Origin: a virus
Taxonomy: Duplodnaviria; Caudoviricetes
Reading direction: 5' to 3' (one strand)
Length of the DNA stretch: 64,000 nt
Virus record (IMG/VR): IMGVR_UViG_3300027804_000001
Span: 192,001-256,000 of that record
In this document: positions 51-50,765 of the stretch, in pieces
How positions within the stretch are numbered: the first letter of the stretch is position 1
How the letters are laid out: each line of letters begins with the position of its first letter
Made by a program: the position numbers and the translations under genes
Notes under the pieces: model-generated
Seen by the model: the letters and a program-made list of their open reading frames with translations, nothing else
Databases searched by the model: none
What the model was told of the DNA's origin: nothing

Positions 51-413
51 TTATAAATTTGTGGTACCGTCTGACTTTATCTCTCCTTTTCTAATTTTAG
101 TACCACTTATTTCTGCAATTTCTGTTGGTGGTTCGTGATAAACGACATCATAACCAACTCCCCTACCATAATTTACCGATTCAATATCGGGTATAATACT
201 GATAAAAATTTTATTAGAGTTTTCAACAAAAAAGGGTTCCTGTGATAATTCCATTAAAATGTCATGTGCCTTCTTAGGGTTATTCTCATCTTGTGGTACA
301 TCTCTAATTGCCACCCACACATTTTTTCCTTTATCCAATTGTTGGCGGATTAACCATTCGTGGCCTTTATGCCAATTTTGCCATCTTCCGATGTATAATG
401 CGTATTTTTTCAT
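51..413 (-). CDS. Cytidylyltransferase-like (HxGH) nucleotidyltransferase, possibly a minimal sulfate adenylyltransferase partner of APS kinase
   Basis: 120 aa. N-terminal IGRWQNWHKGH (HIGH-like) and C-terminal ISGTKIR (KMSKS-like) motifs. 4-nt overlap with cysC. Confidence 0.75.
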   Translation of the reverse strand: MKKYALYIGRWQNWHKGHEWLIRQQLDKGKNVWVAIRDVPQDENNPKKAHDILMELSQEPFFVENSNKIFISIIPDIESVNYGRGVGYDVVYHEPPTEIAEISGTKIRKGEIKSDGTTNL

Positions 414-847
414 ATATCTATAAATTTAATTAAATCGATGAAGGATTCGTCATCGCGTTTGTTAGTGGTATTAATATCTACAAAATTTTCTGTGGGGGGG
501 TCGTAATTTGTCACATGAAAGTTTTCTCTTCCTCTAATTTCTGTTGTGTGAACATAAATCTCAATTACGTCATTCATTTTTTTGAACTCGTCTCTTTGAT
601 CTTTATATGGAGAAACCAAGGATACTACAACCGAATAACCCTTTTCATTCATAAAACGAGCAATATCTTGTGCCCTTTCTATGTTTCGTCTTCTACCTGT
701 TTCTGAATAATCTTTATTTTGAAAGATGTCTCTTAGGTCGTCACCATCAATATGAATAACCTTCTCTGTGTTACTCAAATATGACAATAAATGTTTTGCT
801 AATGTCGTTTTACCCGCTGCGGGTTGTCCTGTAAACCAATAAATCAT
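410..847 (-). CDS. cysC: Adenylylsulfate (APS) kinase
   Basis: WFTGQPAAGKTT P-loop, IDGDDLR, VVVSLVSPY and YDPP motifs typical of CysC. Confidence 0.88.
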   Translation of the reverse strand: MIYWFTGQPAAGKTTLAKHLLSYLSNTEKVIHIDGDDLRDIFQNKDYSETGRRRNIERAQDIARFMNEKGYSVVVSLVSPYKDQRDEFKKMNDVIEIYVHTTEIRGRENFHVTNYDPPTENFVDINTTNKRDDESFIDLIKFIDI

Positions 848-879
848 ATATCATAATATAATGATTTTTTTTCTAAAAA

Positions 880-1557
880 TCAAATGAATTTTAGTGGTTC
901 ATTTAGAGTTTTATTGAACAGTTTGGGGGTTATTCCTAATAAATTAAAAATGTATGATAATGCAATTCCTTCAGAACTACCATAACAACTAAATCCCGAT
1001 TGTTCAACCACACTCATATAATCAAAAATTGGTTTTATTTTTTCCATTTCATATATGATTCTTGTGGTATTATCGTCATATGGAAAATACATATAACACT
1101 CTCTGATTGTTGTTAATTCATTATAATCGAAATTTATTTTTTTGAAGTACAAATAAATTGGTAAGTAGTACACGCTAAAATAATCACCGAACTTATCCCA
1201 TGGAACGTATTTTTTATTGGTTTCGTCCCATTTTTGCCACTTCTCAAAAAAAACATAGTCTTTTGTTTCTTTGAAATTTTTAAAAAAATTATCGGTAAGG
1301 TTCTCACCAAAATCATGGTCTATGTAGAGAACATTTTGTTGAGTTTTTTCTGCAATTCTTAGTGAGAATAAAAGTTTATCAAAATATGAGAATATTTTAT
1401 TTTGATAATATTCGGTTTTAGTATTGGGAAATAATTCTGGTTTGTCTGTTAAGACGTAAACATCCCAACCCCGATTTTTAAAACGTTCAATTTGTTTAAT
1501 TGATTCATCAGGATTACTGGTGTAGTTTTCACCAACCAAAACTAAAGTTAAAATCAT
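880..1557 (-). CDS. Hypothetical protein, putative GT-A-fold glycosyltransferase; paralog of 33726..34436
   Basis: 225 aa. YVLTDKPE, FSYFDKLL, IDHD (DxD) and SSEGI segments align by eye with 33726..34436. Confidence 0.5.
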   Translation of the reverse strand: MILTLVLVGENYTSNPDESIKQIERFKNRGWDVYVLTDKPELFPNTKTEYYQNKIFSYFDKLLFSLRIAEKTQQNVLYIDHDFGENLTDNFFKNFKETKDYVFFEKWQKWDETNKKYVPWDKFGDYFSVYYLPIYLYFKKINFDYNELTTIRECYMYFPYDDNTTRIIYEMEKIKPIFDYMSVVEQSGFSCYGSSEGIALSYIFNLLGITPKLFNKTLNEPLKFI

Positions 1558-1558
1558 A

Positions 1559-1678
1559 TTAATGATTATAGATAAACGGATCTCTCTTTCTGAGTTCCTC
1601 TAACTTTTTCTTTATTTCCTTTTTCTTTTTTCTTTCTTGGATTTTATTCTTAACCCATTTAATTAATTTCATTATCAT
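1559..1678 (-). CDS. Small basic protein (39 aa), not in the ORF track
   Basis: Manual translation gives MIMKLIKWVKNKIQERKKKKEIKKKLEELRKRDPFIYNH*. It exactly fills the gap between the neighbouring genes. Confidence 0.7.
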   Translation of the reverse strand: MIMKLIKWVKNKIQERKKKKEIKKKLEELRKRDPFIYNH

Positions 1679-1685
1679 AAAAAAA

Positions 1686-3350
1686 TCATTTATATATTAC
1701 ATAATTACCTATAACCAAAATATCCATCTCGGTATCATAGAAAGTATCAATCGCATCTTTTGGTGTTAACACCATTGTTTTGTCTTTCACATTGAATGAA
1801 GTATTAAGAAGGATTGGATATCCGGTTAGTTGTTCAAAAACAGTTAAGAGATTGTGTATTTTAGTGTGTTTATATACTGTTTGTACTCTAGCAGTTCCGT
1901 CAACATGTGTAACCGCTTTTAATATATCCACATATTCGTCCTTTACTTTAACAACTTGATTCATATAAGGAACATCCTCAACCATTTCAAAAAAATCAAA
2001 TTGTCTTTCTTTTGTAACCATTGGTGCAAATGGTCTAAAACCCTCTCTCTTTTTAATCACTTTATTTATTTTATCTTTCATTCCGTCTATTGTTGGATTG
2101 GCTAAAATTGATCTATTACCTAACGCCCTTGCACCGAATTCACACCTTCCTTGAAACCATCCGACAACCTTTCCCTTTTTTAAATTTAGGGCAACATGTT
2201 CCAACAATCTATTTTCTAAAGTAAACTTGAATATTTTTTCTTTCTTAATGTCCTTTAAAAATTTATCGTATTCATATCTTGGACCAATAAAAGGATTTTT
2301 TTGAATTCTATTTTTTAAGAGGTCGTTCTTTACCAAATAATGAACACACGCACCAATACATGAACCAGCATCTGATGGTGCCGGTGGTATCCATAAACTT
2401 TTAACATGTGTCTTTCTTATAATCTTTCCATTTGCGGTTCCGTTATATGCACAACCACCACTTAAACAAAGATTTGTATTTTGTGAAAATTTCTTTGTAT
2501 AGTTAATAATTTTAAATAATATCTCCTCATATACTTTTTGTACAGACGCAGCTAAATTTTTGTGTATAATTTCAATACTTTCCTCTGGTAATCTTTGTTC
2601 AATTCTTAAAACATTATATAGGTTTTCATTGAACATTAGTGTATCTGATCTATCCCAACAAAACACATCCATATCGCATTTTAGTTCTCCATTTTTGAAT
2701 GATATCAATTTTCTTACTCTATCAATTAATGGTCTATAATCACCATAAGACGCCAATCCCATCATTTTATATTCACCTTCATTTGGTTTAAATCCGAGGT
2801 AAGATGTCATTGCAGAATAGAATAGACCTAATGAATGTGGATATTTTGATAATGTTTTATATTCAATTCCTTTTGAATTTGCCAATCCAAAAGATAATGT
2901 ATCTATTTCACCGACACCATCAACAGATAAACAATTAGATTCTTTATAATCTGACATAAAAAAAGAATAATATTGATGTGCTAAATGATGTTCAGAATAA
3001 AAAATATTATCAGAATAGTTCGATAACATTTTTTTCACATTTTTAATATTATTTTTAATTTTAAAATAACTCTTTAAAGAGAATATTGGGTTTTTAAATA
3101 GTTTTGTTTTTACATTTTCTTTTACACGTTTAAGTTTTAATTGTGGGTTTTCATAATAACAAATAACAGAAATGTCTTTCTTTGTTAAATTATATTGTTT
3201 GAATATATAGTCAAGTGTTTTTACAGGAAACGATGAATCATGTTTTATACCTGTAAATTTTTCTTCCTCACAGGCAAACAATAATTCTCCGTTCTTGAAT
3301 AAACAAGCTGAAGAATCGTGATAGTATGCCGAAACACCAATTACGTACAT
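1686..3350 (-). CDS. O-carbamoyltransferase, NodU/CmcH family
   Basis: HDSSACL, EHHLAH, VDGVGE, EGEYKMMGLASYG, LSGGCAYN, EFGARALGNRS, FRPFAP, HVDGTARVQTV and NTSFN motifs. Confidence 0.95.
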   Translation of the reverse strand: MYVIGVSAYYHDSSACLFKNGELLFACEEEKFTGIKHDSSFPVKTLDYIFKQYNLTKKDISVICYYENPQLKLKRVKENVKTKLFKNPIFSLKSYFKIKNNIKNVKKMLSNYSDNIFYSEHHLAHQYYSFFMSDYKESNCLSVDGVGEIDTLSFGLANSKGIEYKTLSKYPHSLGLFYSAMTSYLGFKPNEGEYKMMGLASYGDYRPLIDRVRKLISFKNGELKCDMDVFCWDRSDTLMFNENLYNVLRIEQRLPEESIEIIHKNLAASVQKVYEEILFKIINYTKKFSQNTNLCLSGGCAYNGTANGKIIRKTHVKSLWIPPAPSDAGSCIGACVHYLVKNDLLKNRIQKNPFIGPRYEYDKFLKDIKKEKIFKFTLENRLLEHVALNLKKGKVVGWFQGRCEFGARALGNRSILANPTIDGMKDKINKVIKKREGFRPFAPMVTKERQFDFFEMVEDVPYMNQVVKVKDEYVDILKAVTHVDGTARVQTVYKHTKIHNLLTVFEQLTGYPILLNTSFNVKDKTMVLTPKDAIDTFYDTEMDILVIGNYVIYK

Positions 3351-3354
3351 TATT

Positions 3355-5088
3355 TTATAAATTTATTAAACTTTGAAAAAAGTTATAATCTGTCTTATCT
3401 TCATACAAACTAGCAACTATTTCTCTATTATGTTTGAATCTTTTTTTAGATTCTAAATAAAAACCAGATAATTGATTTTTAATTTTATTAAGACGAACAA
3501 TTTCATCGATAATCATTTTCATTCTTTTTTGTGGATTTGGTTCGTTGTCATAACTTGTATCCACAAAGTCTTCAAATAAATCAAACCCATATTTTTCTTT
3601 TGTTCTTTTAACATGTTGATATGTACCGACAAGTAACGGGATTTGGGAATAATACAATGGAATTAAAGTTTTCTCTGTAATGTGAATTACTTCATCTCTA
3701 GAGAATTGTGATTCATTTACGATATTAATATATGAATGTTTATATGGATTATTTTCAAACATATAATCCCAATTTTGTCCGCCACCTGGTGTATCTATGT
3801 CATACGTTTCAAATTCACTTTTTTTGTTTTCTGCATCTTTGAAATAATTAAAACTTTCTCTCATTTCATTTATCATTTCATCATCAAAAACATCTCTTAA
3901 TATGTTCATATCGATGTTACCATCTGGTAATCTATAATCAGCAAGTCTAGTTGCTCTTAAAAATGACCAATCGGTATCTTCTAATAAATTGTGGTGTTTA
4001 AGTGCTGTTAAAATACCAACCCTATGGCTTGTATAATTTCTATTATAACACATAAACAATCTTTCTTTTTTTGGTTGGAAGTGGTATCCATCGCAAAAGT
4101 TTAGTATGTTTCTTGTTACAACTAAAGGTAATCTATTTGAAACATGTACGTTTATATCAGAATTTGCTTCTTTTTTTAAATCAGGAAGTAGTTCATTTCC
4201 ATTAATTATAAAAATTTGATTTGTTGGTATTCCTTCCATTTTTGCAAAGTAATCTGAGAACTTTACTACGTTACCTAAATCACATTCGTGCTCTGTTATA
4301 AACAGAACTTTAAAATTTTCATTTTCAATTAGTAGTTTTTTGATTTCGTCTGATATCGGAAACTTTTTATTTTCGGATAAATAATGTGTTAAATAATATG
4401 GTACATGTACTAAATGATAAAAATTTTCCTCTTTTCTTTGAGTTATTTCTTCTTTGTTACAGATTTTATAATTTTTAACATCATACCAACCATTACCAAT
4501 AAAATCCAGTGTCATTGTTTCACTGGTGTTATGATTAAAATCGTCACAAATAAGATTTAATATTGTTTTATTGTTATATAATTCTGGATACTCGTTTATA
4601 ATATAAACACCCACTACACTTGTTGCTCGGTCATAATTTAGTCTAATGTCTTCGATTGTTTTACAATCAAGTATGGTAACATTTTTACACATACTTTTAA
4701 ATTCTTCAATATAATTTGCTTTGTGTTGATGTCCTGGGTCTAATGGTTTATCCGAACCTTTACCAACTCGTATAATCATGTGAACCTTTTCACCTGACAT
4801 TGATTCATATTTGTCAACATGATTTATTAATTGATTTGCTGCGGAAATTAAAAAATCCCATCTAGGGTAAAATGTAATTACTCTTTTACCTGTCATTGCT
4901 AATCCTAAACTCATACCCATCTGAGTTTCCTCCATTACAGGAACCTCAATCATTTTTTCTTTAGGTACTTCATCAAGTGTTGTACTCATTGGGTTACCTC
5001 TATATACAATTTGTTGTCCAATAAAAACATAATCATCATCTTTTGATAATTTAGTCATTATTTCAGAAAGTGTTTCTTTATATGTCAT
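3355..5088 (-). CDS. Fusion of a TPP-enzyme beta-subunit (transketolase/E1beta pyrimidine-binding) domain with a GT10-like glycosyltransferase-type domain
   Basis: aa 1-~175 have EVPVMEETQMGMSLGLAMTG and LINHVDK (E1beta-like). The C-terminal ~400 aa have LFMCYNR..HR and SYINIVNES..HITEKTLIPL, shared with four other paralogs here. Confidence 0.75.
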   Translation of the reverse strand: MTYKETLSEIMTKLSKDDDYVFIGQQIVYRGNPMSTTLDEVPKEKMIEVPVMEETQMGMSLGLAMTGKRVITFYPRWDFLISAANQLINHVDKYESMSGEKVHMIIRVGKGSDKPLDPGHQHKANYIEEFKSMCKNVTILDCKTIEDIRLNYDRATSVVGVYIINEYPELYNNKTILNLICDDFNHNTSETMTLDFIGNGWYDVKNYKICNKEEITQRKEENFYHLVHVPYYLTHYLSENKKFPISDEIKKLLIENENFKVLFITEHECDLGNVVKFSDYFAKMEGIPTNQIFIINGNELLPDLKKEANSDINVHVSNRLPLVVTRNILNFCDGYHFQPKKERLFMCYNRNYTSHRVGILTALKHHNLLEDTDWSFLRATRLADYRLPDGNIDMNILRDVFDDEMINEMRESFNYFKDAENKKSEFETYDIDTPGGGQNWDYMFENNPYKHSYINIVNESQFSRDEVIHITEKTLIPLYYSQIPLLVGTYQHVKRTKEKYGFDLFEDFVDTSYDNEPNPQKRMKMIIDEIVRLNKIKNQLSGFYLESKKRFKHNREIVASLYEDKTDYNFFQSLINL

Positions 5089-5098
5089 ATTCTTTAAT

Positions 5099-5731
5099 TT
5101 AAAATGCTACCCATTTTCCACTTCCATAGTGTGGATATTTTGATTTATACTGATACCAAATTATATCATTAGGTACATCTCTTTTTATGTTATTCCAAGT
5201 TACCTCTGTTGGTGTATATGTTGATACTCCATTATCCTCCACAACAAAATATAATGGTAAATCGAAGTTTCTAGCGTATTTGTGTGTTTCATAAAACAAC
5301 CCACTTTCAAAACTCATATCACCTACAAATACCCAAACTTTTTCGTCACCACCACTTCTTTTAATTCCCATTGCAACACCTAAAGCAATTGATAATGTTC
5401 CACCAACAATTGCAGAAGCATAAAATTTGTCTTTTGGATTACAAACCGTAATTGATTTACCTTTTAATATTTGATCCTCTAACCATGCAGGGCAAATACC
5501 TTTTACCAAAGCATGATAATGTGATCTCCATGTTGAGAAAATCCAATCTGTTGTTTTTATTCTTTTGGATATTTCAATTAACTGTTCCTCATTACCATTT
5601 GATAAATGAACAGGTCCTCTAATTTTACCACCTTCCCAGTGATTTACAATTAAATCTTCAAATTTTATTAAATCTTCTGGTGTTAAATTTTGTTCTCTAA
5701 CTATTGGGTATTGTTCTAAATTTTTAATCAT
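5099..5731 (-). CDS. Short TPP-dependent enzyme alpha subunit (PDH E1alpha-like)
   Basis: GPVHLSNG, STWRSHYHAL, AIVGG and the TPP-binding motif VFVGDMSFESG...VVEDN. Only 210 aa. Confidence 0.85.
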   Translation of the reverse strand: MIKNLEQYPIVREQNLTPEDLIKFEDLIVNHWEGGKIRGPVHLSNGNEEQLIEISKRIKTTDWIFSTWRSHYHALVKGICPAWLEDQILKGKSITVCNPKDKFYASAIVGGTLSIALGVAMGIKRSGGDEKVWVFVGDMSFESGLFYETHKYARNFDLPLYFVVEDNGVSTYTPTEVTWNNIKRDVPNDIIWYQYKSKYPHYGSGKWVAF

Positions 5732-6276
5732 TTGTCTTTCATTTGAAGTATTGGGTTATTTGTTGGCCATTCTATGTTCCATTTTGGGTCGTTCCATTTT
5801 GCCACTCCGTGATTTATAGAATCTACATATTCACCTTTATAAAACATATTATAATGAAAAACACAATCAGTTAATGCGTAGTGACCATTTGCAAATCCTG
5901 GTGGAACCAATACTTGATTTCTATTTTTTTCTGAGATTAAAAACCAATCCCATTTACCGTATGTTGGTGAATTTTCTCTAACATCTAAAACTACAAGATA
6001 TATGTCACCAACTAATGCTTGTACCAACTTCCATGTTTTATCATCATAATGTAGACCTCTTAAAACATTTTTATATGACTTTGAAAATCTACCGTGAAAA
6101 CTAATTTCATTTTTATCATAATGAATATGTCTCATAACCGGATGTTCTTCACTATGAAATGTTGTAAAAATTTCACCTCTAAATTCTCTAAAGACTGAGG
6201 GTGTGAATATAGGAACCTCACATCCAAAAACTTTAGATGGGTTTTCTTCAAAATCACTCCATTTTTTTTCACTCAT
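5728..6276 (-). CDS. rmlC: dTDP-4-dehydrorhamnose 3,5-epimerase family (cupin)
   Basis: LRGLHY, SPTYGKW and VPPGFANGH motifs. Start placed at 6276 (ATGA overlap with the upstream gene) rather than 6285. Confidence 0.88.
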   Translation of the reverse strand: MSEKKWSDFEENPSKVFGCEVPIFTPSVFREFRGEIFTTFHSEEHPVMRHIHYDKNEISFHGRFSKSYKNVLRGLHYDDKTWKLVQALVGDIYLVVLDVRENSPTYGKWDWFLISEKNRNQVLVPPGFANGHYALTDCVFHYNMFYKGEYVDSINHGVAKWNDPKWNIEWPTNNPILQMKDK

Positions 6277-7016
6277 ATTCCCCAAAATTTTTTTCTAATT
6301 TCGTACACATCAAAAGGTTCTCTTTTCATTTGACCACCTTCTCTGATTGGTGCACTTTTTGTTTTATAACTAAGAACAATTGACCTTCTAAATCTGTCAC
6401 TTTTATTATCTTCCGAACCATGCACTAAATGGTCATGTGCAAATAACACATCACCAACTTTACAAACGTGGTTCACTTTATTAAAATGATGATTTTCAGG
6501 CATAACGCAAGCCCTACCTCTTTCATTTCTCCAAAACGATGGATTTGTTTTTGCTCTTTCCTCGTCTATTTCGATTGGTAGTATTGGTAAAAAATGTGAA
6601 CATTCATATGAATATAAACAACCATTTGTTTCATTCATAGAGTCCAAAGATATAATAACATTTATTGACCCACCCCAACCAGATTGAGTATAAAATCCAT
6701 CTTGATGAATATCTCTCCCTAACTCATTTGGGGGTTTGAAATATGCCAAACTTTGTATCCCCTCAATTTCATCTCCCATGATTTTTTCCAGTGTGTCAAT
6801 AATTTGAGGGTGACCGAATAGTTTTAGTATTAATTCAGAATCTTTTTGTGGGTGTGAGTACATGTCATATTCACCCCAAGAAAAATCTTTAGAATTTCTG
6901 ATAACTCTTAACCTATCTAATTCAAATTTTATATCTAAACATTCATACTCCGAAAAAATAGGGAGTATAATAAATCCACGATATTTCCAATTATATAATT
7001 CTTGTTCGTTTAACAT
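6273..7016 (-). CDS. Phytanoyl-CoA dioxygenase (PhyH)-family Fe(II)/2OG oxygenase
   Basis: YFKPP, HQD (HxD), NGCL and LVHGS..N.S..RRS facial-triad pattern. Confidence 0.85.
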   Translation of the reverse strand: MLNEQELYNWKYRGFIILPIFSEYECLDIKFELDRLRVIRNSKDFSWGEYDMYSHPQKDSELILKLFGHPQIIDTLEKIMGDEIEGIQSLAYFKPPNELGRDIHQDGFYTQSGWGGSINVIISLDSMNETNGCLYSYECSHFLPILPIEIDEERAKTNPSFWRNERGRACVMPENHHFNKVNHVCKVGDVLFAHDHLVHGSEDNKSDRFRRSIVLSYKTKSAPIREGGQMKREPFDVYEIRKKFWGI

Positions 7017-7026
7017 AATTGTATTT

Positions 7027-7437
7027 TTATTCCCAACTAATTCCCCAATCTTTAAATTCTGAAGCTAAACAGTCTGTTTTATAATCTTTCCTACCGCCAA
7101 CAATTTCTTGTATTTTATTTTTAGCAGTATTTCTAACACCGTTTAAACCATGTGTTAATTCTAAATTGGTATTTTCAGTTTTACCATACTTTCTGTAGTT
7201 AGATTCATTGTGCCAAATATGTAAATTAGTTTGTGCTAACACAACAATTGCCCTTACGGTATCAGCACTGATTAATTCATCAGTATTTTTTAGAATCAAA
7301 TCTATATCGTGTTTGATATCTCTTATTTCTTGTGCGTATTCCTCTTTATGTTCAGGTATAAACTGTTCTTTTAATTGAGAAATACTTAATCTGTCAACTA
7401 ATTCTGCTAATGTTGGTAGATACTTACGTTCTGACAT
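7027..7437 (-). CDS. Conserved helical hypothetical protein (DUF6165-like)
   Basis: 136 aa. AELVDRLSISQLK, N..IWHNE..YR and NG.RN.AKN.IQ resemble the DUF6165 pattern as I recall it. Confidence 0.45.
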   Translation of the reverse strand: MSERKYLPTLAELVDRLSISQLKEQFIPEHKEEYAQEIRDIKHDIDLILKNTDELISADTVRAIVVLAQTNLHIWHNESNYRKYGKTENTNLELTHGLNGVRNTAKNKIQEIVGGRKDYKTDCLASEFKDWGISWE

Positions 7438-7440
7438 TTT

Positions 7441-8448: not shown

Positions 8449-9464
8449 TTATAATAAAATTTTTTTAACTTATCGTTTTCAAAAGCCCAATCAAAATCCT
8501 CTTTGTATTTTTCATATAATACGTAAAATTCTTGAGGAATGGTAGTGTTTTCTTCAATAATTTTTATTGCAGTGGAAATATTCTTTTCTAATTTATCCTT
8601 AACTTTAAGGTATAAATCATAATAGTTCATATCTTTTATTCTAATTAAGTTTGACATAATCCCATCCAATCTTTTATCTAAAGATTCTTCATTATCAAAA
8701 TCGTAGTCAAAAATCTCATCATATAATTCAAAACCATATTTTTTAAGGTTGGAGTGGAATCCCTTAATACTGACAACCAAAAAAATTTGTCCTAGTAATA
8801 ATGGTTTTGCCGTTTTTTCCGTCAGAAAAAAATAAATGTTATGGTTATTACATATAGTTTCGGTTACCAAATTTACCAGTGGGTTTCCATTATTCATTGA
8901 TAACCAATGTTGATTGGCTCCACTATCATATTCATGTGTATCATCTATTTTTACAATTTTTTGTTCCCAACATTTAAAATCATAAAGATGGTCGTCTTTA
9001 ATTAACCAAGATATCACTCCATAATCCAACAAATTGGATTTACATAGTTTATCAATTGTCATTGATCTATGTGGTTTTATGTGGTTATTTAAACAAATGA
9101 ATAATTTCTCGTAAACTCTTTTATCAATGTCCTCTTTAATTAATTTATATGTATCAAGTTGTGTATGGTATATACTGTTGAAAAAATATTGGGGGATGAA
9201 TATAAATTTAAACTTATTATATTTTCCATATTTTTCAAACACAATATCCTGCTTTTCAATACCTAAGAAAACATATAAGTCAATATTTTTACTATCTAAG
9301 AAATTATTAAAATCATTTAAAATTTCATTAAAAAATATGTCATATTCTCTAATGTAATCCCACACAATTATTTCCGGATTAAGTGTATTAATGTCATCCA
9401 AAATTTTTGAATAATCTTGGTGATTACTGCACCCACCAAACTTTATGAAATAAACTTTATTCAT
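8445..9464 (-). CDS. GT10-like glycosyltransferase-type protein (paralog family)
   Basis: FICLNN..KPHR and NLVTET..FFLTEKTAKPLLLGQIF motifs. Confidence 0.55.
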   Translation of the reverse strand: MNKVYFIKFGGCSNHQDYSKILDDINTLNPEIIVWDYIREYDIFFNEILNDFNNFLDSKNIDLYVFLGIEKQDIVFEKYGKYNKFKFIFIPQYFFNSIYHTQLDTYKLIKEDIDKRVYEKLFICLNNHIKPHRSMTIDKLCKSNLLDYGVISWLIKDDHLYDFKCWEQKIVKIDDTHEYDSGANQHWLSMNNGNPLVNLVTETICNNHNIYFFLTEKTAKPLLLGQIFLVVSIKGFHSNLKKYGFELYDEIFDYDFDNEESLDKRLDGIMSNLIRIKDMNYYDLYLKVKDKLEKNISTAIKIIEENTTIPQEFYVLYEKYKEDFDWAFENDKLKKFYYK

Positions 9465-45166: not shown

Positions 45167-45200
45167 TTCTTCTTCTTTGTTTTTATTACACTAAGTCTTT

Positions 45201-45208
45201 TATAAATA
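45201..45208 (-). promoter_or_regulatory. Putative late-promoter motif (sense TATTTATA, followed by AAAGACTT)
   Basis: 35 nt upstream of the 45166 start. Confidence 0.55.
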
Positions 45209-45253
45209 TTTCATTATTCGATTAGTTTATTACTTTTGATAAAAAACTTTTTA

Positions 45254-47482
45254 TTATAAAAATGTCGTCATTGACTTGAATGTCCAATTCGCACTTGCGT
45301 TTACTTTCAATTCAACATGACCTTCATTTGAAACCGTTACATCAAAAGATGCATCACTTGTATCTCCAATATCTGCCGTTGTTGTTTCATTAAAATTTAC
45401 ACTATTATTATTCCACACCGCAACAACTATACCCGCTCTCGCATTTGAATTATCATAAATTGTATAATTGTAAAACGCTGACGTGTATGAACCCGTTAAT
45501 GTTGACACTACAGTATTAGAACCTGGTGAAACATTTGACAATGAATTTTTTAGTTGTGCGTTGGTAACATCAATACTACCTGTAACAATTAATGATCCTG
45601 ATATGGTTGTATCATTACCTATTGTTACTATAGTTCCTGTATCAACAATAGATGAGTTTGTAACACCTGTTGCCGATTCAAATTTGACAACAGTATTTAC
45701 ATTACCATTAATTGAAACTGATGTTCCACTTGTTCCTGAAGTACCCCCACTTCCACTAGTTCCAGATGTTCCACTAGAACCTGATGTACCCGAAGTTCCA
45801 GATGATCCACTACTACCGCTAGTACCACTTGTGCCTGATGTTCCTGAAGTTCCTGCTGAACCTGAAGTACCACTACTACCACTTGTGCCCGATGTTCCTG
45901 AAGTACCGGCTGAACCCGATGTTCCACTACTACCGCTAGTACCCGAAGAACCAGAACTTCCACTTGTTCCCGAAGTACCAGAACTTCCACTTGTTCCCGA
46001 AGTACCGGCTGAACCTGATGTTCCACTACTACCAGATGAACCACTACTACCACTTGTACCAGCAGTGCCACTACTACCACTTGTACCGGCAGTACCACTA
46101 CTACCACTAGTACCTGATGAACCACCACCACCTTCACCGAGTGTTGCAACTACAATACCCGCAATTGGTTGTGAAAATGTAATTGTTGCATTGTATAAAT
46201 CAACCGCTAAAATCTCTTGAGGTATAACTTGGTAACCATATTCATCAAATACTTGAAATACGGGATATCTTGCACCTAAATCATGATTAAAATACCACAC
46301 GTCTGACGGTGTTGTAACCGTCATTGATTCATAAGCACCTACTGTTGTACTACCTGAAGAACCCGAACTACCTGATGTTCCACTAGTTCCTGAAGTACCA
46401 CTACTTCCTGAACTACCTGAAGTACCTGAGGTTCCACTAGTTCCCGATGTACCACTAGTACCGGCAGTACCACTACTACCACTTGTACCCGAAGTACCGG
46501 ATGAACCATTACCACCAATCGTTGCAATTACTGTACCTGCTGTTGGTAATGCAAAATAAACATCTAAATTATTTGCATCTAATACTTTAATTTCAGTTGG
46601 GATGATGACCCTATCACTGTTATCAAAAACATTAATTGCTGGATATTTGTAATCTAAATTGTGATTAAAAGACCATGTTGTTTGTTGTGAACTCACAACA
46701 AGTGTTCTTGTCATACCCGAAACAGGGTATGCAGAATCAACATAATTTACTAAAGAGGCCGATAATGCCGATACATTGAATGTTACTTCTTTAATGTAAC
46801 CGTTATCATTTGTATCAACCATTGATGTGGTGATTTCTAAACCACCTTCACCGATAAATTCAACAACATCTGAACCTGTTGCTCTAACTAAATCCTGACC
46901 TTCAACAAATATATCTCTAAAGTGTGAACCAATAGAAACAAATGCGGTACCATCAAAAGATTCACTAACATTTAATCCCGTACTATCGTCAAATTGTAAT
47001 TTGGTAAATTGTTTATCATATGTATTACCATCAACATCAGAACCTGAAATATGAAATGGTACATTTGTTAAACCTAAACCACTACCTGTAAATTCTGTTG
47101 CAGTAATTGAACCTGTTACAGATAAATTTACATTAACTTGTAAACCATCTTCATCAATAGATGCGGTCGCATTACCACTTGCAATTTGAGATAAGTTTAA
47201 TCCTGTGATACCACTTGCCGGAATATTATAAAGACCTTGTCCATCACCTATGAATGAACCCGTAAAAAATGATGCTGTTACATTATCTGTTAGATAAATT
47301 GAACCTGTATTAACCGTGTTTGTTGCAACTAATTCTTGTATTGAAGGACCTAACGCACCTGAAACCGCAAAAAATACTTTACCGTCAGTAGTATTAATTG
47401 ATAATTCCCCTAGTTGTAGATTAGCGTTGGTCGGTTTCCTACCCGATACAGCGCTCCTACGTAGCTTTACTATTTGTGCCAT
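45254..47482 (-). CDS. Tail-fibre-like protein with an Mtd_N-like N-terminus and Gly-(S/T)-S repeats
   Basis: MAQIVKLRRS..PT...LQLGELSINT.DGK.F, two HNL/HDL..YP modules and G-X-S repeats. Confidence 0.82.
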   Translation of the reverse strand: MAQIVKLRRSAVSGRKPTNANLQLGELSINTTDGKVFFAVSGALGPSIQELVATNTVNTGSIYLTDNVTASFFTGSFIGDGQGLYNIPASGITGLNLSQIASGNATASIDEDGLQVNVNLSVTGSITATEFTGSGLGLTNVPFHISGSDVDGNTYDKQFTKLQFDDSTGLNVSESFDGTAFVSIGSHFRDIFVEGQDLVRATGSDVVEFIGEGGLEITTSMVDTNDNGYIKEVTFNVSALSASLVNYVDSAYPVSGMTRTLVVSSQQTTWSFNHNLDYKYPAINVFDNSDRVIIPTEIKVLDANNLDVYFALPTAGTVIATIGGNGSSGTSGTSGSSGTAGTSGTSGTSGTSGTSGSSGSSGTSGTSGTSGSSGSSGSTTVGAYESMTVTTPSDVWYFNHDLGARYPVFQVFDEYGYQVIPQEILAVDLYNATITFSQPIAGIVVATLGEGGGGSSGTSGSSGTAGTSGSSGTAGTSGSSGSSGSSGTSGSAGTSGTSGSSGTSGTSGSSGSSGTSGSSGTSGSAGTSGTSGTSGSSGTSGSAGTSGTSGTSGTSGSSGSSGTSGTSGSSGTSGTSGSGGTSGTSGTSVSINGNVNTVVKFESATGVTNSSIVDTGTIVTIGNDTTISGSLIVTGSIDVTNAQLKNSLSNVSPGSNTVVSTLTGSYTSAFYNYTIYDNSNARAGIVVAVWNNNSVNFNETTTADIGDTSDASFDVTVSNEGHVELKVNASANWTFKSMTTFL

Positions 47483-47527
47483 ATATATGGTTCCCTCAAT
47501 CGAATGTGGTATGTACCACGGTTAATT

Positions 47528-47554
47528 AGACTTATATAAGTCTTTCTATAAATA
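47528..47554 (-). promoter_or_regulatory. TATTTATA motif followed by the perfect 16-bp palindrome AGACTTATATAAGTCT
   Basis: Palindrome at 47528-47543 and motif at 47547-47554. A further hairpin GTGGT-N4-ACCAC lies at 47506-47519. Confidence 0.55.
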
Positions 47555-47578
47555 CATAAAAATTTCGTTTGTGTAAAT

Positions 47579-47605
47579 AAAAAAAGGGAGAGTTTTTACT
47601 CTCCC
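47579..47605 (-). terminator. Intrinsic terminator
   Basis: Minus strand GGGAGAGT-AAAA-ACTCTCCC followed by T7, downstream of the 47634 stop. Confidence 0.88.
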
Positions 47606-47633
47606 CCTTATTTAATTTATAAATGTTATAATT

Positions 47634-49961
47634 TTAGTAAGATCCACCATCGATGACTGTTGAGAACTTCAATGAACCATCAGAATTTTTGTATCCTAAA
47701 ATACCATCAAGAACATCAGTTGTTTCGGTAGTCGAAACAAAACCAACAACGTTTGAAGAATTTCTGAACATGATTGTAGATGTTTTATTTCCGTTGTCAG
47801 TTCCTCCTGAATATGATAATGTGAAGTTACCACTTATTGATGTATCACCCGTTCCTGAATCAACTGTGAATTTATTTGTATTAAATGCTAAAGTTGTTCC
47901 AAGATAAGTCAATAAACTATCTGCTATGTGGTCATCATCAACCGCAATTGGGAAGTGACCAACTGTTAAACCTGTTTCTTCACCTAATGAACCTGTATTT
48001 TTTGGTCCCGCAATAAAACGAGCTGAAGCGTATGAGGATCCCGAAGGATTTGCATAAATCCAAACATTATTTTGTGAATCCCAAAGTAATGACCCTGTTA
48101 CACCAACATTTGATCCTGAATCATAAACATCAATTCCTGCAAATCTTTCAAATGGTGAATAGGTATTGAGTAATATTTTATTTGTTCCAATATCAACTTG
48201 AGATCCTGATAATGTAATAATTGAACCTGTACCTAAAACTTGGAAGTTTCCTGATACATACATGTTACCATGTACAGTTAAATCATTATCGAAAGCCGAA
48301 TTACCATTTACATTTAGACTACCACTTAATCTAAAATTAACATTATCTAAAGTTAAACTACCTGTATTATCTAAGAATACACTATGTGTAACATTAGATG
48401 TCACATCCCAAGTATTTAATTCAATACCTCTTTGTTCAACCAATAAATTATTGATTCCCATTTCATCATTTGCTACCGATATTGTTGTTGTACCATTAAT
48501 ATCAGCATAACTACCAGTAAATCCACCAGGTATTGTTAAATTACCATTAACATCAAAATTTAATGTTTTTGATACTCCATTATAATTTGTTATTAATGTA
48601 ATAGACTCTTCGTCACTATAGTTTCTTAATGAGAATGTATCGTTAGAGTATAATCTAAGGTCATCACCGGCAGTTATAGTTACATCGGTGTCCGCTTCAA
48701 AAGTTAAATCACTACTTGAACTAACAAATAAATCGTTACCATCCTCGGTTTTTATATTTAACGAGCCGGAGGTGATAATATCAACACCACCAACAGATTC
48801 AATACTAATTTTTGATAAACTATCATCAATTTTTAAAAAATTGGTGTCATCACCAAAGAAATTATAAGTAGCATTACCTTTAAAATGAATGTCCGAAGGC
48901 GCTGTATTATAAATTTGAAATAATCTTGAGTCGTTTTTGTCTGGTTTCAAATATAATGAACCCGTACCTTGGATATCAGTTACTTCAAGTGCTCCCGATA
49001 AGTTTAAATTACCGTTATCAAATGTTAAACCACTATAATCTGTAAGTATACCATCAGTACCAACAACAACTAATCTTTTCTCTGTTAAATCATCTAAGTA
49101 AACTGAACCAGATAATATTGTTGTTCCTGTAACTGTTAAGTCACCTGGTAATTCTAAATTTGTTGTTGAAACTTGACCGATATTAATATTTTCAATAAAC
49201 GCAGTTCCACTAACATATAAATCTTTCCATGCATTTGTTGGTGAACCTAAATCAAATAGATTTGAACCTGATGGAACAAGGGATGAACTAATTTCAGCGT
49301 TTAAGTCAATAACATCACCACCTTGATTATCACCGATGGTAATGTTACCTTTCATAGTGATTGAACCTGAGGTTCTAATATTACCTGTGTTGTTGTCAAC
49401 TTCAAATTGACCTTGACCTATATTAAATGTTGAACCATCAAATGTTAAATTTGGACTATCTTCAAGTATCCCACCTGTACCAACAAGAACTAATCTATTG
49501 TCAGTTAATCCTGTAATTGTAACATCACCATTAAAAGTTGTATCACCTGTTACATTCAAAGCGGATGCACTAACAAATGTGTCAAAAACACCTGTATTAC
49601 CTGTTAAGTTATTAATAGTAACACCACTTATAACATTACCTTCAATATTACCTGTTAAATCCATAGTAATATTTCCTACGTTACTTAAAAGATATAATGT
49701 TTGGTCAGTAGAACTATAAAAAGGTGTACCATTTAATGTTGATCCGTAACTACCTCCCGTTAAATCGGGTGCAACTGAACCTTGATATATTTTAGATAGT
49801 GTTCTAAAGGCTCCAGCTGAACCCTCGGTTTCACCAACAAAAATCCAAGGACCGTTCATGTTACCAACCGAACCGGTTGCCATTACTAATTCGCCCTTTT
49901 TAGCTGTTGCAGAAACTAAGGAGTCAATCGAACCCCTTCTGTGTTTAATTATTTGTGCCAT
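47634..49961 (-). CDS. Putative tail-fibre/structural protein (775 aa)
   Basis: MAQIIKHRRGS N-terminus resembles its neighbour. Gly/Ser/Thr/Asn-rich beta-like repeats. The GSLLWDS segment is shared with 50007..50765. Confidence 0.7.
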   Translation of the reverse strand: MAQIIKHRRGSIDSLVSATAKKGELVMATGSVGNMNGPWIFVGETEGSAGAFRTLSKIYQGSVAPDLTGGSYGSTLNGTPFYSSTDQTLYLLSNVGNITMDLTGNIEGNVISGVTINNLTGNTGVFDTFVSASALNVTGDTTFNGDVTITGLTDNRLVLVGTGGILEDSPNLTFDGSTFNIGQGQFEVDNNTGNIRTSGSITMKGNITIGDNQGGDVIDLNAEISSSLVPSGSNLFDLGSPTNAWKDLYVSGTAFIENINIGQVSTTNLELPGDLTVTGTTILSGSVYLDDLTEKRLVVVGTDGILTDYSGLTFDNGNLNLSGALEVTDIQGTGSLYLKPDKNDSRLFQIYNTAPSDIHFKGNATYNFFGDDTNFLKIDDSLSKISIESVGGVDIITSGSLNIKTEDGNDLFVSSSSDLTFEADTDVTITAGDDLRLYSNDTFSLRNYSDEESITLITNYNGVSKTLNFDVNGNLTIPGGFTGSYADINGTTTISVANDEMGINNLLVEQRGIELNTWDVTSNVTHSVFLDNTGSLTLDNVNFRLSGSLNVNGNSAFDNDLTVHGNMYVSGNFQVLGTGSIITLSGSQVDIGTNKILLNTYSPFERFAGIDVYDSGSNVGVTGSLLWDSQNNVWIYANPSGSSYASARFIAGPKNTGSLGEETGLTVGHFPIAVDDDHIADSLLTYLGTTLAFNTNKFTVDSGTGDTSISGNFTLSYSGGTDNGNKTSTIMFRNSSNVVGFVSTTETTDVLDGILGYKNSDGSLKFSTVIDGGSY

Positions 49962-49980
49962 TTTATATTATTGTTCTTTT

Positions 49981-49994
49981 TATTTATATAAATA
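49981..49994 (-). promoter_or_regulatory. TATTTATA motif inside the 14-bp palindrome TATTTATATAAATA
   Basis: 20-33 nt upstream of the 49961 start. Confidence 0.5.
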
Positions 49995-50006
49995 CTTTAT
50001 TTTAAA

Positions 50007-50765
50007 TTAAAAAAATCCATCTCCACAGTCTATTTCCTGTAGTAAAGACCTATCTGCCAACGTCCCTAAATTTTGTATTTTCAAAGAAGCTGAAACAATT
50101 TGTGGTGTTAATTCATTTCTAACAATACTCATTGCACCTGAAACCACCAATGATTCTAAATTCTCATCAAGTGTCTGTACTAAGGTTGTCATACCCTCAA
50201 CTCTCAAATCACCTTTAATGACCATTGACCCCGTTACTTGTAAGTCATTCGTTGTTGCAAAAAATGAACCCGTTTCTCTCCAAACACCAGCATCTAAATC
50301 GGTACTTAAAATTACCTTTTGTTCACTACCACTTGGTCCCGCAATCCAATAATCATTTACAGAATCCCAAAGTAATGAACCAGATATTTTATTTGGATTT
50401 GTTGGGTCGTTAACTAACAGACCACCAAAACCTTCTTCGGTACCATTAAGTGAAATAATATTATCACCTAAGTCAATAATATTAGAATCTATTATTGTTG
50501 TTGTTCCTTTAACAGTAAGATTACCTTTGACTGTAAGATTTGAACCGGTTAATTCTATTGCTTGATTAAGTGAAGCGGTATATGCATTTAACGCATTCAC
50601 ACCACCTACTTCACCAACATAATCACTAAACTCTAAACCCGATATATAAAGATTTTCAAAATAACCAGCATGTAATGGACCCGTAAGTTTTCCAATATCT
50701 ATAATAGAACCAGAAGGTACATTTGTTGTGTCAATTTGTGTCCAGTTAATCTGTTGTAATGCCAT
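50007..50765 (-). CDS. Putative virion structural protein (252 aa)
   Basis: Shares the VKGTT..D..I.LN...G....GSLLWDS..W segment with 47634..49961. Confidence 0.65.
   Translation of the reverse strand: MALQQINWTQIDTTNVPSGSIIDIGKLTGPLHAGYFENLYISGLEFSDYVGEVGGVNALNAYTASLNQAIELTGSNLTVKGNLTVKGTTTIIDSNIIDLGDNIISLNGTEEGFGGLLVNDPTNPNKISGSLLWDSVNDYWIAGPSGSEQKVILSTDLDAGVWRETGSFFATTNDLQVTGSMVIKGDLRVEGMTTLVQTLDENLESLVVSGAMSIVRNELTPQIVSASLKIQNLGTLADRSLLQEIDCGDGFF

Follow-up and report, generated by a model that had tools for sequence, protein, structure and literature searches.

The stretch of DNA analysed here, which we call the window, is 64,000 nucleotides long and comes from a tailed phage (IMG/VR record IMGVR_UViG_3300027804_000001, positions 192,001 to 256,000). 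On its minus strand lie a block of 38 genes for the modification and transfer of sugars (positions 51–35,771) and, upstream of this block, a tail-fibre module that includes very large collagen-like proteins rich in Ser and Thr (35,851–50,765). We propose that the block encodes a cytoplasmic glycosylation system that does not use a lipid carrier, that belongs to the tail-fibre module and that has a virion protein as its acceptor, and we give this reading a probability of about one half.

The source is a freshwater jumbo phage with a genome of approximately 334 kb. One of the GT7 proteins of the window sits on a contig of 333,612 bp, and proteins identical to those of the window are found on freshwater metagenome contigs from the Joint Genome Institute and the European Nucleotide Archive. 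The relatives in IMG/VR are 245–336 kb in length; CheckV rates three of them as complete and one carries terminal repeats. Relatives of this size, together with a sigma factor, NusG, a Dam methylase and matches to tail-fibre PHROGs, identify the locus as phage rather than as a bacterial surface-polysaccharide locus. The sigma factor, NusG, the Dam methylase, the S74 tail fibres and the restriction of relatives to the Uroviricota likewise argue against a bacterial or giant-virus origin. Almost every gene in the window is on the minus strand and the GC content is 26–32% outside the fibre genes; that of the enzyme block (25–32%) is the same as in the rest of the phage, which speaks against recent acquisition of the block from a host. 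A megablast search with positions 50,000–62,000 against 50,697 deposited phage records gave no match at the DNA level, and an exact 44-mer taken from the window had none in IMG/VR.

Gene Content of the Enzyme Block

A first, sequence-only reading of this DNA described about 38 co-directional and tightly overlapping genes for sugar modification and glycosyl transfer. This description holds: there are 37 open reading frames (ORFs) at 51–35,501 and one of 77 residues at 35,539–35,771, which was below the 80-residue threshold of the initial ORF list. Between 51 and 50,765 every ORF of at least 80 residues with a family match is on the minus strand, and most gene junctions within the block are overlaps of 1–26 nt or gaps of less than 35 nt. 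Families were assigned from Pfam, NCBIfam, PHROGs and sequence searches of the Protein Data Bank (PDB). All genes of the block and the fibre module described below are on the minus strand.

The block is headed by the 77-residue ORF, which is rich in Gly, Ser and Thr, is kept in four close relatives and is preceded by the motif GTATTTATA at 35,791–35,799, so that this unit spans 35,539–35,799. The genes that follow at 32,993–35,501 encode a 148-residue protein, an Anp1/GT62-like glycosyltransferase (GT) of GT-A type (34,414–35,058), a 236-residue GT-A-like protein (33,726–34,436) and a Methyltransf_24 protein (32,993–33,739), the last of which belongs to a core conserved among relatives. This core continues through 29,049–32,996 with a Glyco_tranf_2_4 protein of GT-A type (GT2_4; 32,145–32,996), an 84-residue coiled-coil-like protein (31,894–32,148) and two GT7 enzymes with a LamG insert (30,473–31,894 and 29,049–30,476), and then through 24,744–29,052 with a LamG-like domain fused to an N-twitch radical S-adenosylmethionine (SAM) enzyme (26,944–29,052), a LamG-like protein of 246 residues (26,220–26,960) and a second N-twitch radical SAM enzyme (24,744–26,195).

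Downstream of the core, 21,132–24,740 holds a GT resembling NodZ, FUT8 and POFUT (23,703–24,740), a short DegT-like protein (23,015–23,701), a 284-residue protein and a StrB1-like amidinotransferase (21,132–22,142). At 15,301–21,130 there are a short-chain dehydrogenase/reductase (SDR) domain fused to a GT-B domain (18,971–21,130), a protein similar to UDP-glucose/GDP-mannose dehydrogenases (17,808–18,974) and two GT-B paralogues (16,607–17,833 and 15,301–16,614). The stretch at 8,445–15,304, assigned by Pfam and paralogy, encodes an SGNH hydrolase, a DUF5672 protein, a DegT aminotransferase, three SDR proteins of epimerase/reductase type, a protein with a GDS motif and a further GT-B paralogue (8,445–9,464). 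The last stretch, 51–8,448, was assigned by Pfam and contains a 4,6-dehydratase-like protein of the GDP-heptose/mannose type, a conserved protein of 136 residues, a PhyH dioxygenase, an RmlC-like cupin, a thiamine pyrophosphate (TPP) E1 alpha-like protein, an E1 beta-like protein fused to a GT-B domain (3,355–5,088), an O-carbamoyltransferase (1,686–3,350), a 225-residue protein, an adenosine phosphosulfate kinase (410–847) and a 120-residue protein.

Several of the tailoring enzymes have close relatives among solved proteins. The nearest relative of the 4,6-dehydratase-like protein is a GDP-glycero-manno-heptose 4,6-dehydratase (7us5, E 4.2e-106), those of the O-carbamoyltransferase are NovN, GdmN and TobZ (E 3e-74 to 6e-58), and the amidinotransferase matches StrB1 (PDB 1bwd, E 9.3e-97). 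For the SDR protein at 10,151–11,107 the closest relatives are GDP-mannose 3,5-epimerase and GDP-fucose synthase, and in total the block has five SDR domains and two DegT aminotransferases, one of them short. One of the SGNH-type assignments comes from a weak Pfam match below the cut-off and another from a GDS motif read by eye. The two radical SAM enzymes match NCBIfam NF033640 (N-terminal twitch) with 295 and 306 bits against a cut-off of 170 (E 3.8e-91 and 1e-87), and both their CxxxCxxC motif, CNF(A/K)C(S/A)YC, and their N-terminal Cys motifs are conserved among homologues. Residues 1 to approximately 225 of the 702-residue radical SAM protein (26,944–29,052) are paralogous, with 30% identity, to the 246-residue protein (26,220–26,960), which itself has a weak LamG match, and a lectin-like module thus appears to serve both fused to and free beside the two radical SAM enzymes. 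No nucleotidyltransferase was found in the block, so the pathways would start from nucleoside diphosphate (NDP) sugars of the host. PHROGs gave no match for eight of ten unassigned enzymes, and PDB sequence searches returned nothing for 22,129–22,983, 23,703–24,740, 32,145–32,996 or 13,956–14,687.

The modification genes are not limited to the roughly 35 kb from the window start, as had been thought, but carry on for at least 10 kb beyond it. The preceding 10 kb of the phage (L001 10,816–20,438) encodes three 2-oxoglutarate (2OG)-Fe(II) oxygenases, a DUF2061 protein, a Trp halogenase, a GDSL/DUF6071 protein and eight further genes. The Trp halogenase and the oxygenases bear on a different function for the whole region, namely the synthesis of a soluble glycosylated metabolite, such as an aminoglycoside-like or aminocyclitol-like compound or a glycosylated peptide, directed against the host or competitors. 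The StrB1-like amidinotransferase, the NovN/GdmN/TobZ-like carbamoyltransferase, the DegT aminotransferases and the twitch radical SAM enzymes all fit such a pathway; BtrN, an aminoglycoside enzyme, is a known twitch radical SAM enzyme. Homologues in a cyanophage have been called “antibiotic synthesis genes” (PMC12801897). The cultured Ralstonia jumbo phage RsoM2USA (344 kb; MG752970.1, 123,467–128,228) pairs the same radical SAM enzyme (48% identical to 24,744–26,195) with an O-carbamoyltransferase three genes away (33% identical to 1,686–3,350), with no fibres nearby and with all genes there annotated as hypothetical. Against a metabolite, approximately 12 GTs, including five paralogues fused to or beside tailoring domains, are far more than a small molecule needs. 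There is no Pfam match to a cyclitol-forming enzyme (inositol-phosphate or 2-deoxy-scyllo-inosose synthase) or to a resistance or export gene among the 37 block proteins, six of which have no assignment, nor was a kinase for such a pathway found. A polymeric substrate is instead indicated by the LamG fusions and by the fixed place of the genes behind the fibres. We hold a metabolite to be improbable.

Glycosyltransferases

The tally of about 12 GTs consists of the two GT7 enzymes, the GT2_4 protein, the Anp1-like protein, the DUF5672 protein, the 236-residue GT-A-like protein, the 345-residue NodZ/FUT8/POFUT-like protein and the five GT-B paralogues. The sequence-only reading gave the same number, which stands if evidence at the level of the fold is accepted; matches to curated families back only about five of the 12, and the DUF5672 protein is counted as GT-like by assumption.

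The two GT7 proteins (29,049–30,476 and 30,473–31,894) score 65–74 bits for Pfam GT7N and 61–69 bits for GT7C against cut-offs of 27 and 23, and contain an internal Laminin_G_3 domain. The motifs FNRG, HDxDM, YFGGV and WGWGxED are kept in approximately 48 homologues, which places the proteins in CAZy family GT7, and the LamG insertion is atypical for that family. The best solved relative is beta4GalT7 (3lw6, E 7.5e-30), the galactosyltransferase of the Ser-linked proteoglycan linkage region; this likeness would be one of family and need not extend to specificity. Distant GT7 homologues also occur in a second viral group, seven IMG/VR loci with 39–44% GC (L064–L070), with 33–38% identity over the first 150–200 residues, and three of these carry a homologue of the Anp1-like GT about 8 kb from the distant GT7.

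Five further proteins form a paralogous family detected by blastp, comprising 8,445–9,464, 15,301–16,614, 16,607–17,833 and the C-terminal parts of 3,355–5,088 and 18,971–21,130. The family has no match in Pfam, PHROGs or NCBIfam and could not be assigned to a CAZy family. It has 108 homologues, all annotated as hypothetical and all on contigs of phage size or shorter, of which 36 were aligned. An AlphaFold2 model of the 408-residue member (16,607–17,833) has a predicted local distance difference test score (pLDDT) of 90.4 and a predicted template modelling score of 0.89. When this model was used in Foldseek, all of the top 50 PDB matches and most of the top matches among Swiss-Prot models were GT-B enzymes, with probabilities of up to 0.99; they include GT10 fucosyltransferase, BshA, glycogen synthase, OtsA, T4 BGT, TarM and SdgB. 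The template modelling (TM) scores are only 0.3–0.43, because the two Rossmann domains are mobile in their relative orientation. On the strength of the model the family is predicted to consist of GT-B fold glycosyltransferases. Two window proteins combine the GT-B domain with a tailoring domain (E1 beta-like and SDR) in one chain, and a protein atlas shows it fused to methyltransferase and DUF6071 domains in other phages.

The remaining members of the tally are supported to different degrees. The model of the GT2_4 protein (pLDDT 92) has a GT-A fold with LARGE1, SunS, ThuS, chondroitin synthase and xylosyltransferase 1 as neighbours at TM 0.3–0.49; these would not assign it to a family, and its invariant residues are conserved among homologues. 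The 345-residue protein (23,703–24,740) has language-model atlas features that match NodZ/FUT8/protein-O-fucosyltransferase clusters at 0.95 with TM 0.53–0.59, and the 236-residue protein (33,726–34,436) matches GT8/GT6/TOD1-type clusters at 0.95; both are treated as leads. NCBIfam gave nothing for the GT2_4, 84-residue or 236-residue proteins, and a xylosyltransferase (GT14) was not identified.

When the GT7-LamG and GT-B proteins were searched by tblastn against the 50,697 deposited phage records there was no match, and no cultured carrier of these two families was therefore found. Among the core genes and tailoring genes that were queried, which were not all of the core, cultured relatives were found only for the radical SAM enzyme (RsoM2USA) and the amidinotransferase (cyanomyophage S-SCSM2R and Campylobacter phages). 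In metagenomes the GT7-LamG architecture is found in more than 2,249 protein clusters.

The Fibre Module

Upstream of the block on the same strand are three LamG proteins and, further upstream, five genes of the fibre module at 38,009–50,765. The LamG proteins (35,851–38,009) are small, have a ConA-like lectin fold (Laminin_G_3, 4e-13 and 1.5e-12, and paralogy) and share a C-terminus ending in NATKKRFNL; the trio matches the C-terminus of the virion-structural phrog_8510. Next to them is a collagen-like fibre of 649 residues (38,009–39,958) with 114 triplets and a C-terminal S74 chaperone (Collagen 1.1e-49, Peptidase_S74 4.1e-17, tail-fibre PHROGs). The S74 intramolecular chaperone is a hallmark of trimeric phage fibres. 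The largest fibre, with 1694 residues (40,082–45,166; Collagen 1.3e-149), has 378 triplets in five runs split by globular modules of about 80 residues, and contains 621 Ser, 273 Thr and 10 Pro. It consists of three near-identical units, each made of a run of approximately 85–93 triplets and an 80-residue globular module (EVYKT...INLDGATGADG), and then two more collagen runs. The third collagen-like fibre (742 residues, 45,254–47,482) has 65 G-(S/T)-S triplets (Collagen 2.6e-23, tail-fibre PHROGs) and also holds two copies of a module related to the globular module of the 1694-residue fibre. The module is completed by a repeat-free fibre protein of 775 residues (47,634–49,961), with 23% Ser plus Thr and no G-X-Y runs, whose homologues lie upstream of the core in relatives, and by a 252-residue protein (50,007–50,765) that matches residues 566–643 of the 775-residue protein in blastp and has virion-structural PHROG matches.

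That the fibres upstream of the enzymes would carry more than 1000 Ser and Thr residues in Gly-X-Ser triplets, as first noted, is confirmed by the counts. The three collagen-like fibres have 557 G-X-Y triplets in total, with Ser or Thr at X and with Ser at Y in approximately 90%, and contain 1,411 Ser plus Thr and 29 Pro overall. Their uninterrupted G-X-Y runs of 19–114 triplets together with the S74 domain are those of collagen triple-helix tail fibres. The Gly, Ser and Thr codons of the repeats are a mixture of synonymous codons, so the repeat is maintained at the level of the protein. Every triplet holds a Ser-Gly dipeptide, which is the attachment motif of glycosaminoglycans.

The triplet runs have no Pro or Lys and are nearly uncharged, so that the usual stabilisers of a collagen helix, Pro or hydroxyproline (Hyp) at X or Y and KGD or KGE salt-bridge triplets, are not present in them. 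Viral collagen-like proteins are normally rich in KGD and KGE triplets, and a (Gly-Pro-Thr)10 peptide is a random coil unless each Thr bears a beta-galactose (PMC11923368). For fibres that lack both proline and charge, glycosylation is therefore the one documented stabiliser that is left.

Regulatory Signals and Expression

The fibre genes and the enzyme block share an upstream motif, (A/G)TATTTAT(A/G) or RTATTTATR, found on the minus strand at 35,791–35,799, 40,006–40,014, 45,201–45,209, 47,547–47,555, 49,987–49,995 and 50,786–50,794. At each of these places it precedes a start codon by 28–73 nt, namely those of the five fibre genes and that of the 77-residue ORF heading the block, for example at 28 nt for the 77-residue ORF, 34 nt for the 775-residue protein and 29 nt for the 252-residue protein, and is often directly followed by AAAGACTT. 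Intergenic DNA makes up 5.5% of the window but contains six of the nine same-strand copies, and none is inside the 35-kb block; a binomial estimate of this positional bias is approximately 2e-6, the total number of copies in the window being that expected by chance. In relatives the motif also precedes fibre genes and, in one locus (L061), the methyltransferase gene that heads the core. Two more copies are found 51 and 66 nt upstream of a 167-residue gene (59,448–59,951) and the thioredoxin gene. From its sequence and placement the motif looks like a promoter element of the fibre module.

Strong terminators follow the 775-residue gene (47,582–47,609) and the 1694-residue gene (40,037–40,063). 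None was found on the minus strand at 33,000–38,009, where the S74 fibre gene gives way to the first genes of the block, in a scan that covered 1–19,000 and 33,000 onward. From the common motif and the absence of an intervening terminator we infer that the block would be co-regulated with the fibre genes. A scan for sigma-70 consensus promoters showed no excess over shuffled sequences, and the Bacteroidota-type pattern TTTG-N18-22-TAnnTTTG gave six matches against 4.9 expected, which is uninformative. Two freshwater metatranscriptome libraries from different studies contain contigs that are 100% identical to the DNA across the block, which is compatible with expression.

Export, Lipid-Carrier and DNA-Modifying Enzymes

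Hydrophobic 19-mers occur at most once per protein in the block, and these single ones are Rossmann N-termini or buried strands. By this measure there is no multi-spanning membrane protein in 51–35,771 and the enzymes are soluble. Pfam gave no match in the window to Wzx, Wzy, an ABC transporter or a phosphoglycosyl transferase. Exporter or polymerase genes just outside the window, which the sequence-only reading had named as a finding that would count against it, are likewise missing from the 10 kb beyond either end. Bac_transf (PF02397) is absent from the three relatives searched for it, two of them complete, and PF01943 (Wzx), PF04932 (Wzy_C/O-antigen ligase) and PF00953 (GT4/WecA) are absent from five relatives (G001–G005, three complete and two partial), ABC2_membrane not having been searched there. 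As a control, the four profiles each match 9–13 of 14 control genomes (PF02397 nine, PF00953 12). The view that the cluster is not a bacterial surface-polysaccharide locus is upheld by this absence of exporter and lipid-carrier genes from the window, its flanks and the relatives, and by the presence of phage genes.

The same results bear on whether the enzymes instead remodel the lipopolysaccharide, capsule or glycoproteins of the host during infection, so as to block superinfection or alter recognition. This is how analogous fibre-adjacent clusters have been read (PMC7029224, PMC12801897); the downstream part of the block is hypervariable among relatives, as in O-antigen loci, and several enzymes are closest to those of capsule or O-antigen sugar pathways, such as the GDP-heptose dehydratase 7us5. 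However, neither the block and its flanks nor the complete relatives encode a membrane protein, flippase, polymerase, ligase or lipid-carrier transferase, and the glycan would have to join a host pathway at the cytoplasmic face. For a lytic jumbo phage, at least 40 genes would also be a high price for an effect that is transient, and the core bears LamG modules rather than membrane anchors. Remodelling of the host surface is in our view quite unlikely.

Modification of DNA is a further use to which soluble GTs can be put, and glycan hypermodification of the phage genome would protect it against restriction or CRISPR. The Foldseek neighbours of the GT-B model include T4 BGT and AGT, at ranks 16 and 23, and weakly related amidinotransferases occur in Campylobacter phages, whose DNA carries modified guanine. 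Against this, BGT and AGT are not the top matches and their TM scores are low. As the sequence-only reading had found, Pfam gives no match in the window to a thymidylate-synthase-like, hydroxymethylase or TET/JBP enzyme. Among the three core-bearing relatives searched, G001–G003, PF00303 is not constant, being absent from the complete G001 and from G003. It is present in G002, one of whose copies has the score of a canonical ThyA, 316 bits. The upstream motif of the block is shared with fibre genes and not with replication genes, and the LamG folds and the beta4GalT7-like GT7 enzymes suggest a protein or glycan acceptor. Phages are said to decorate their DNA with diverse glycans (Pyle et al. 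2024, as cited in PMC12619734), which also speaks for this explanation, the least likely of those considered and a very improbable one.

A Conserved Core Behind the Fibre Genes

A scan of IMG/VR with one GT7-LamG protein gave 65 loci, many of them on contigs of 100–336 kb, and all window proteins were then compared with these by tblastn. Seven genes form a core found in 52–65 of the loci: those for Methyltransf_24, GT2_4, the 84-residue protein, the two GT7-LamG enzymes, the (LamG-)radical SAM protein and the second radical SAM protein. Methyltransf_24 is present in 54 relatives and the GT2_4, 84-residue and GT7 genes in 57–65 loci. The sugar-pathway and GT-B genes downstream of the core differ from locus to locus.

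Synteny was determined in the 38 non-identical IMG/VR loci whose sequence extends 6 kb or more upstream. All 38 keep the genes of the core colinear, and in 29 of them a homologue of a fibre protein of the window lies upstream of it on the same strand. In eight of the other nine there is a giant upstream ORF of 1,437–2,293 residues, and in the ninth (L051) there are only ORFs of 388–411 residues. Four of the giant ORFs were compared with PHROGs; that of L047 matches tail-fibre/spike families, that of L043 matches only a family of unknown function, and those of L053 and L027 match nothing.

Virion Glycosylation as the Proposed Function

In the mechanism that we propose, dehydratases, epimerases/reductases, aminotransferases, the TPP-dependent pair for two-carbon branching and the amidinotransferase, all encoded by the phage, would re-tailor GDP-, UDP- and possibly dTDP-sugars of the host, and approximately 12 soluble GTs would assemble the glycan in the cytoplasm directly on the finished acceptor. 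The core (methyltransferase, GT-A, 84-residue protein, two GT7-LamG enzymes and two N-twitch radical SAM enzymes) would make or edit an invariant inner part of the glycan, with its LamG modules perhaps holding it on a polymeric substrate. From the variable downstream genes would come a lineage-specific outer part bearing carbamoyl and methyl groups and possibly O-acyl and sulfate groups. The acceptor would most likely be a virion protein, above all the fibres, where O-glycosylation could stabilise the approximately 557 proline-free and charge-free G-(S/T)-S triplets.

We favour virion glycosylation because the enzymes are soluble, export machinery is missing, the core is colinear in 38/38 loci, its position is next to the fibres and a motif is common to both. 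The use of LamG, a polymer-binding domain, as an insert by both GT7 enzymes and as a fusion partner by a radical SAM enzyme also leads to this reading, as do the lack of Pro/Hyp or charge in the fibres and the relationship of the GT7 enzymes to beta4GalT7. The GC content of the block matches that of the phage, there are metatranscriptome contigs, and both mycobacteriophages and Mimivirus provide precedents.

Several observations weigh on the other side. The linkage between glycan and protein is one that we propose from the gene content, and the best-known relatives of the StrB1-like, TobZ-like and twitch radical SAM enzymes belong to small-molecule pathways. A similar gene set in cyanophage S-SCSM2R sits away from the fibres, among psbA and psbD. 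Synteny with fibres might arise because the region is a hypervariable “host recognition” region, and not from a relation between enzyme and substrate, in line with the interpretation in PMC7029224. The shared motif is absent upstream of the ClpP and 780-residue genes and would be a candidate late promoter at most, and the metatranscriptome contigs could come from carry-over of DNA. Lastly, G-X-S repeats do not always accompany the enzymes. A genome-wide search with the Collagen profile gave 41 matches in G001 and 32 in G005. G003 and the complete genomes G002 and G004 had none, yet these three keep the core, with clustered epimerase-type genes just downstream, and in G002 and G004 the core and sugar genes lie behind the fibres; the G-X-S repeats therefore cannot be a universal acceptor. 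At least 20 G-(S/T)-S triplets are found in the examined flank of only 10 of the 38 loci. Independent occurrence of the cluster and the G-X-S fibres across genomes, which the sequence-only reading had itself listed as contrary evidence, is thus partly seen.

The tie between enzymes and fibres proposed by that reading consequently stands for the fibre module, with which the core is syntenic in 38/38 loci and shares a motif, and falls for the G-X-S repeats, which G002 and G004 lack. As judged from the loci compared, the enzyme system is a clade-wide companion of the fibre module, and the G-X-S collagen repeats are an elaboration of a sub-clade. A correlation of the repeats with particular enzyme genes was considered and dropped, as gene distributions run along sub-clades and the cases cannot be counted as independent.

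Retention of the system by relatives without Ser/Thr-repeat fibres would also be expected if the product were a cytoplasmic glycan, if the targets were host proteins or non-structural phage proteins, or if a polysaccharide were held non-covalently on the virion. Soluble enzymes that need no export suit any intracellular acceptor. Nothing in the locus points to such targets, though, and the fibre synteny and the common motif would then be coincidence, which makes acceptors of this kind decidedly improbable.

Within virion glycosylation a more specific version can be formulated, in which the fibres are proteoglycan-like or mucin-like. Here (Gly-Ser/Thr-Ser)n would form a collagen-type helix only through near-complete O-glycosylation by the phage, and the core, with its beta4GalT7-like GT7-LamG enzymes, its GT-A that has LARGE1, SunS and xylosyltransferase 1 as fold neighbours, and its radical SAM enzymes, would lay down a linkage region of Ser-Gly type comparable to that of glycosaminoglycans. 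An outer glycan with carbamoyl, guanidino, methyl and sulfate groups would come from the variable genes, and the LamG proteins would read this glycan. We consider this version unlikely. If true, it would make these fibres the product of the most elaborate phage glycosylation system known and reveal a new mode of collagen stabilisation.

Comparison with Known Glycosylation Systems

The sequence-only reading drew a parallel with giant viruses, which is apt, although mycobacteriophages, pelagimyophages and S-SCSM2R are closer precedents. In Mimivirus and the Megavirinae, glycosylation of the fibrils by virus-encoded enzymes has been demonstrated (PMC10117803, PMC8456856, PMC9614988), and giant viruses also have collagen-like proteins and collagen glycosyltransferases (PMC9546862). 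The resemblance lies in the possession of NDP-sugar pathways for rare, bacterial-type amino and deoxy sugars together with GTs in lineage-specific clusters, whose target in the giant viruses is the fibre layer of the virion. The difference is that Mimivirus is a eukaryotic virus with clusters of approximately 6–12 genes and proven attachment, whereas the system described here is that of a tailed phage, has approximately 38 genes plus at least 10 kb and is predicted from its genes. Its core of GT7-LamG and N-twitch radical SAM enzymes also differs from the Mimivirus clusters.

Glycosylation of mycobacteriophage virions by phage enzymes has been proven, according to Freeman et al. (2023) as cited in PMC12619734. 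In that account, as proposed here, the enzymes are cytoplasmic GTs encoded by the phage, and there they modify structural proteins of the virion. The mycobacteriophage systems reportedly comprise two or three GT genes that use host sugars and act on the C-terminal tails of capsid and tail-tube proteins. Unlike the present system, they are not known to have a sugar-synthesis factory, collagen-like fibres, radical SAM enzymes or LamG enzymes.

Large aquatic myophages of other lineages provide a further match in gene content. The “host recognition clusters” of pelagimyophages occupy a hypervariable region that averages 44.6 kb and contains tail fibres, many GTs, deoxy-sugar genes and radical SAM genes (PMC7029224). 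Cyanomyophage S-SCSM2R has 13 GTs, DegT, radical SAM, an amidinotransferase, 2OG oxygenases, a sulfotransferase and PrnA (PMC12801897), and its amidinotransferase is 42% identical to that at 21,132–22,142. The toolkit of this cultured Synechococcus phage (PQ898602.1, 214,582–244,186) further includes thioredoxin and glutaredoxin beside the PrnA halogenase. By sequence, the overlap with S-SCSM2R suggests an accessory module that is common to large aquatic phages. These clusters have been interpreted as serving modification of the host O-chain, glucosylation of DNA or synthesis of antibiotics (PMC7029224, PMC12801897). Unlike here, collagen-like Ser/Thr fibres are not described in either study and the S-SCSM2R genes are not adjacent to fibres. 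The “moraphages” are freshwater jumbo phages of 200–307 kb with a predicted Bacteroidota host and with four putative GT orthologous groups among their near-core genes (PMC12619734). They share the freshwater habitat of the present phage; in PMC12619734 their GTs are given generic roles and there is no fibre-linked factory. The moraphages may include the present clade.

For the fibres themselves, parallels come from the BclA filament of the Bacillus exosporium and from the cuticle collagen of vent worms, in which Thr of Gly-X-Thr repeats is O-glycosylated and beta-galactosyl-Thr takes the place of hydroxyproline as a stabiliser of the triple helix, as cited in PMC11923368. Those repeats contain proline (GPT), whereas in the phage fibres X and Y are almost exclusively Ser or Thr, with no Pro and no charge, and the enzymes are unrelated as far as tested. 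In bacteria, GtfA/B act on serine-rich repeat adhesins and SdgA/B on SD-repeat proteins, and as proposed here these are soluble GTs that modify Ser-rich repeats without a lipid carrier. SdgB is a fold neighbour of the GT-B family and beta4GalT7 the nearest relative of the GT7 enzymes, in both cases a resemblance of fold or family at TM 0.3–0.45.

Virion glycosylation as such is thus already known from giant viruses and mycobacteriophages, as are GT-rich regions adjacent to fibres in aquatic myophages. What is new is the scale, the seven-gene core with its lectin-inserted GT7 and LamG-fused N-twitch radical SAM enzymes, the Pfam-less GT-B family, and the strict synteny with fibres across an abundant clade, one sub-clade of which pairs the system with a proline-free Ser/Thr collagen. 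The “LPS-like” (lipopolysaccharide-like) GT and sugar genes of large aquatic myophages have long been puzzling, and the present clade, which more than 2,200 GT7-LamG clusters show to be abundant and diverse, makes the question sharper and testable. If the acceptor is the virion, lake phages would bear dense, lineage-specific glycan coats that influence how they recognise hosts, withstand proteases and grazers, adhere to mucus or particles and act as antigens, and the machinery would be the most complex virus-encoded glycosylation system outside the giant viruses. The locus also yields new enzyme families, in that the Pfam-less GT-B domains are often fused to tailoring domains and the GT7 and radical SAM enzymes carry lectin modules. 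It offers a natural test case for the question whether a collagen helix without proline can be stabilised by glycosylation alone, and the recurrence of the radical SAM/carbamoyltransferase pair in RsoM2USA opens this part of the system to study in culture.

Other Genes of the Window and Its Flanks

The upstream third of the window (50.8–64 kb) has profile matches to a glutaredoxin, a thioredoxin, an AAA ATPase, a NusG-like protein, a Dam methylase, an amidase and a sigma-70-type factor, and ARAGORN found no tRNA in the window. The 10 kb past the window end contain primase-like, phosphoesterase, GT2 and ClpP genes. A 59-residue ORF on the minus strand at approximately 55,990–56,170 (L002 16,954–17,133), in an apparent gap of the 80-residue ORF list, matches Pfam Hc1, the chlamydial histone-like family, and may encode a DNA-condensing protein of the phage.

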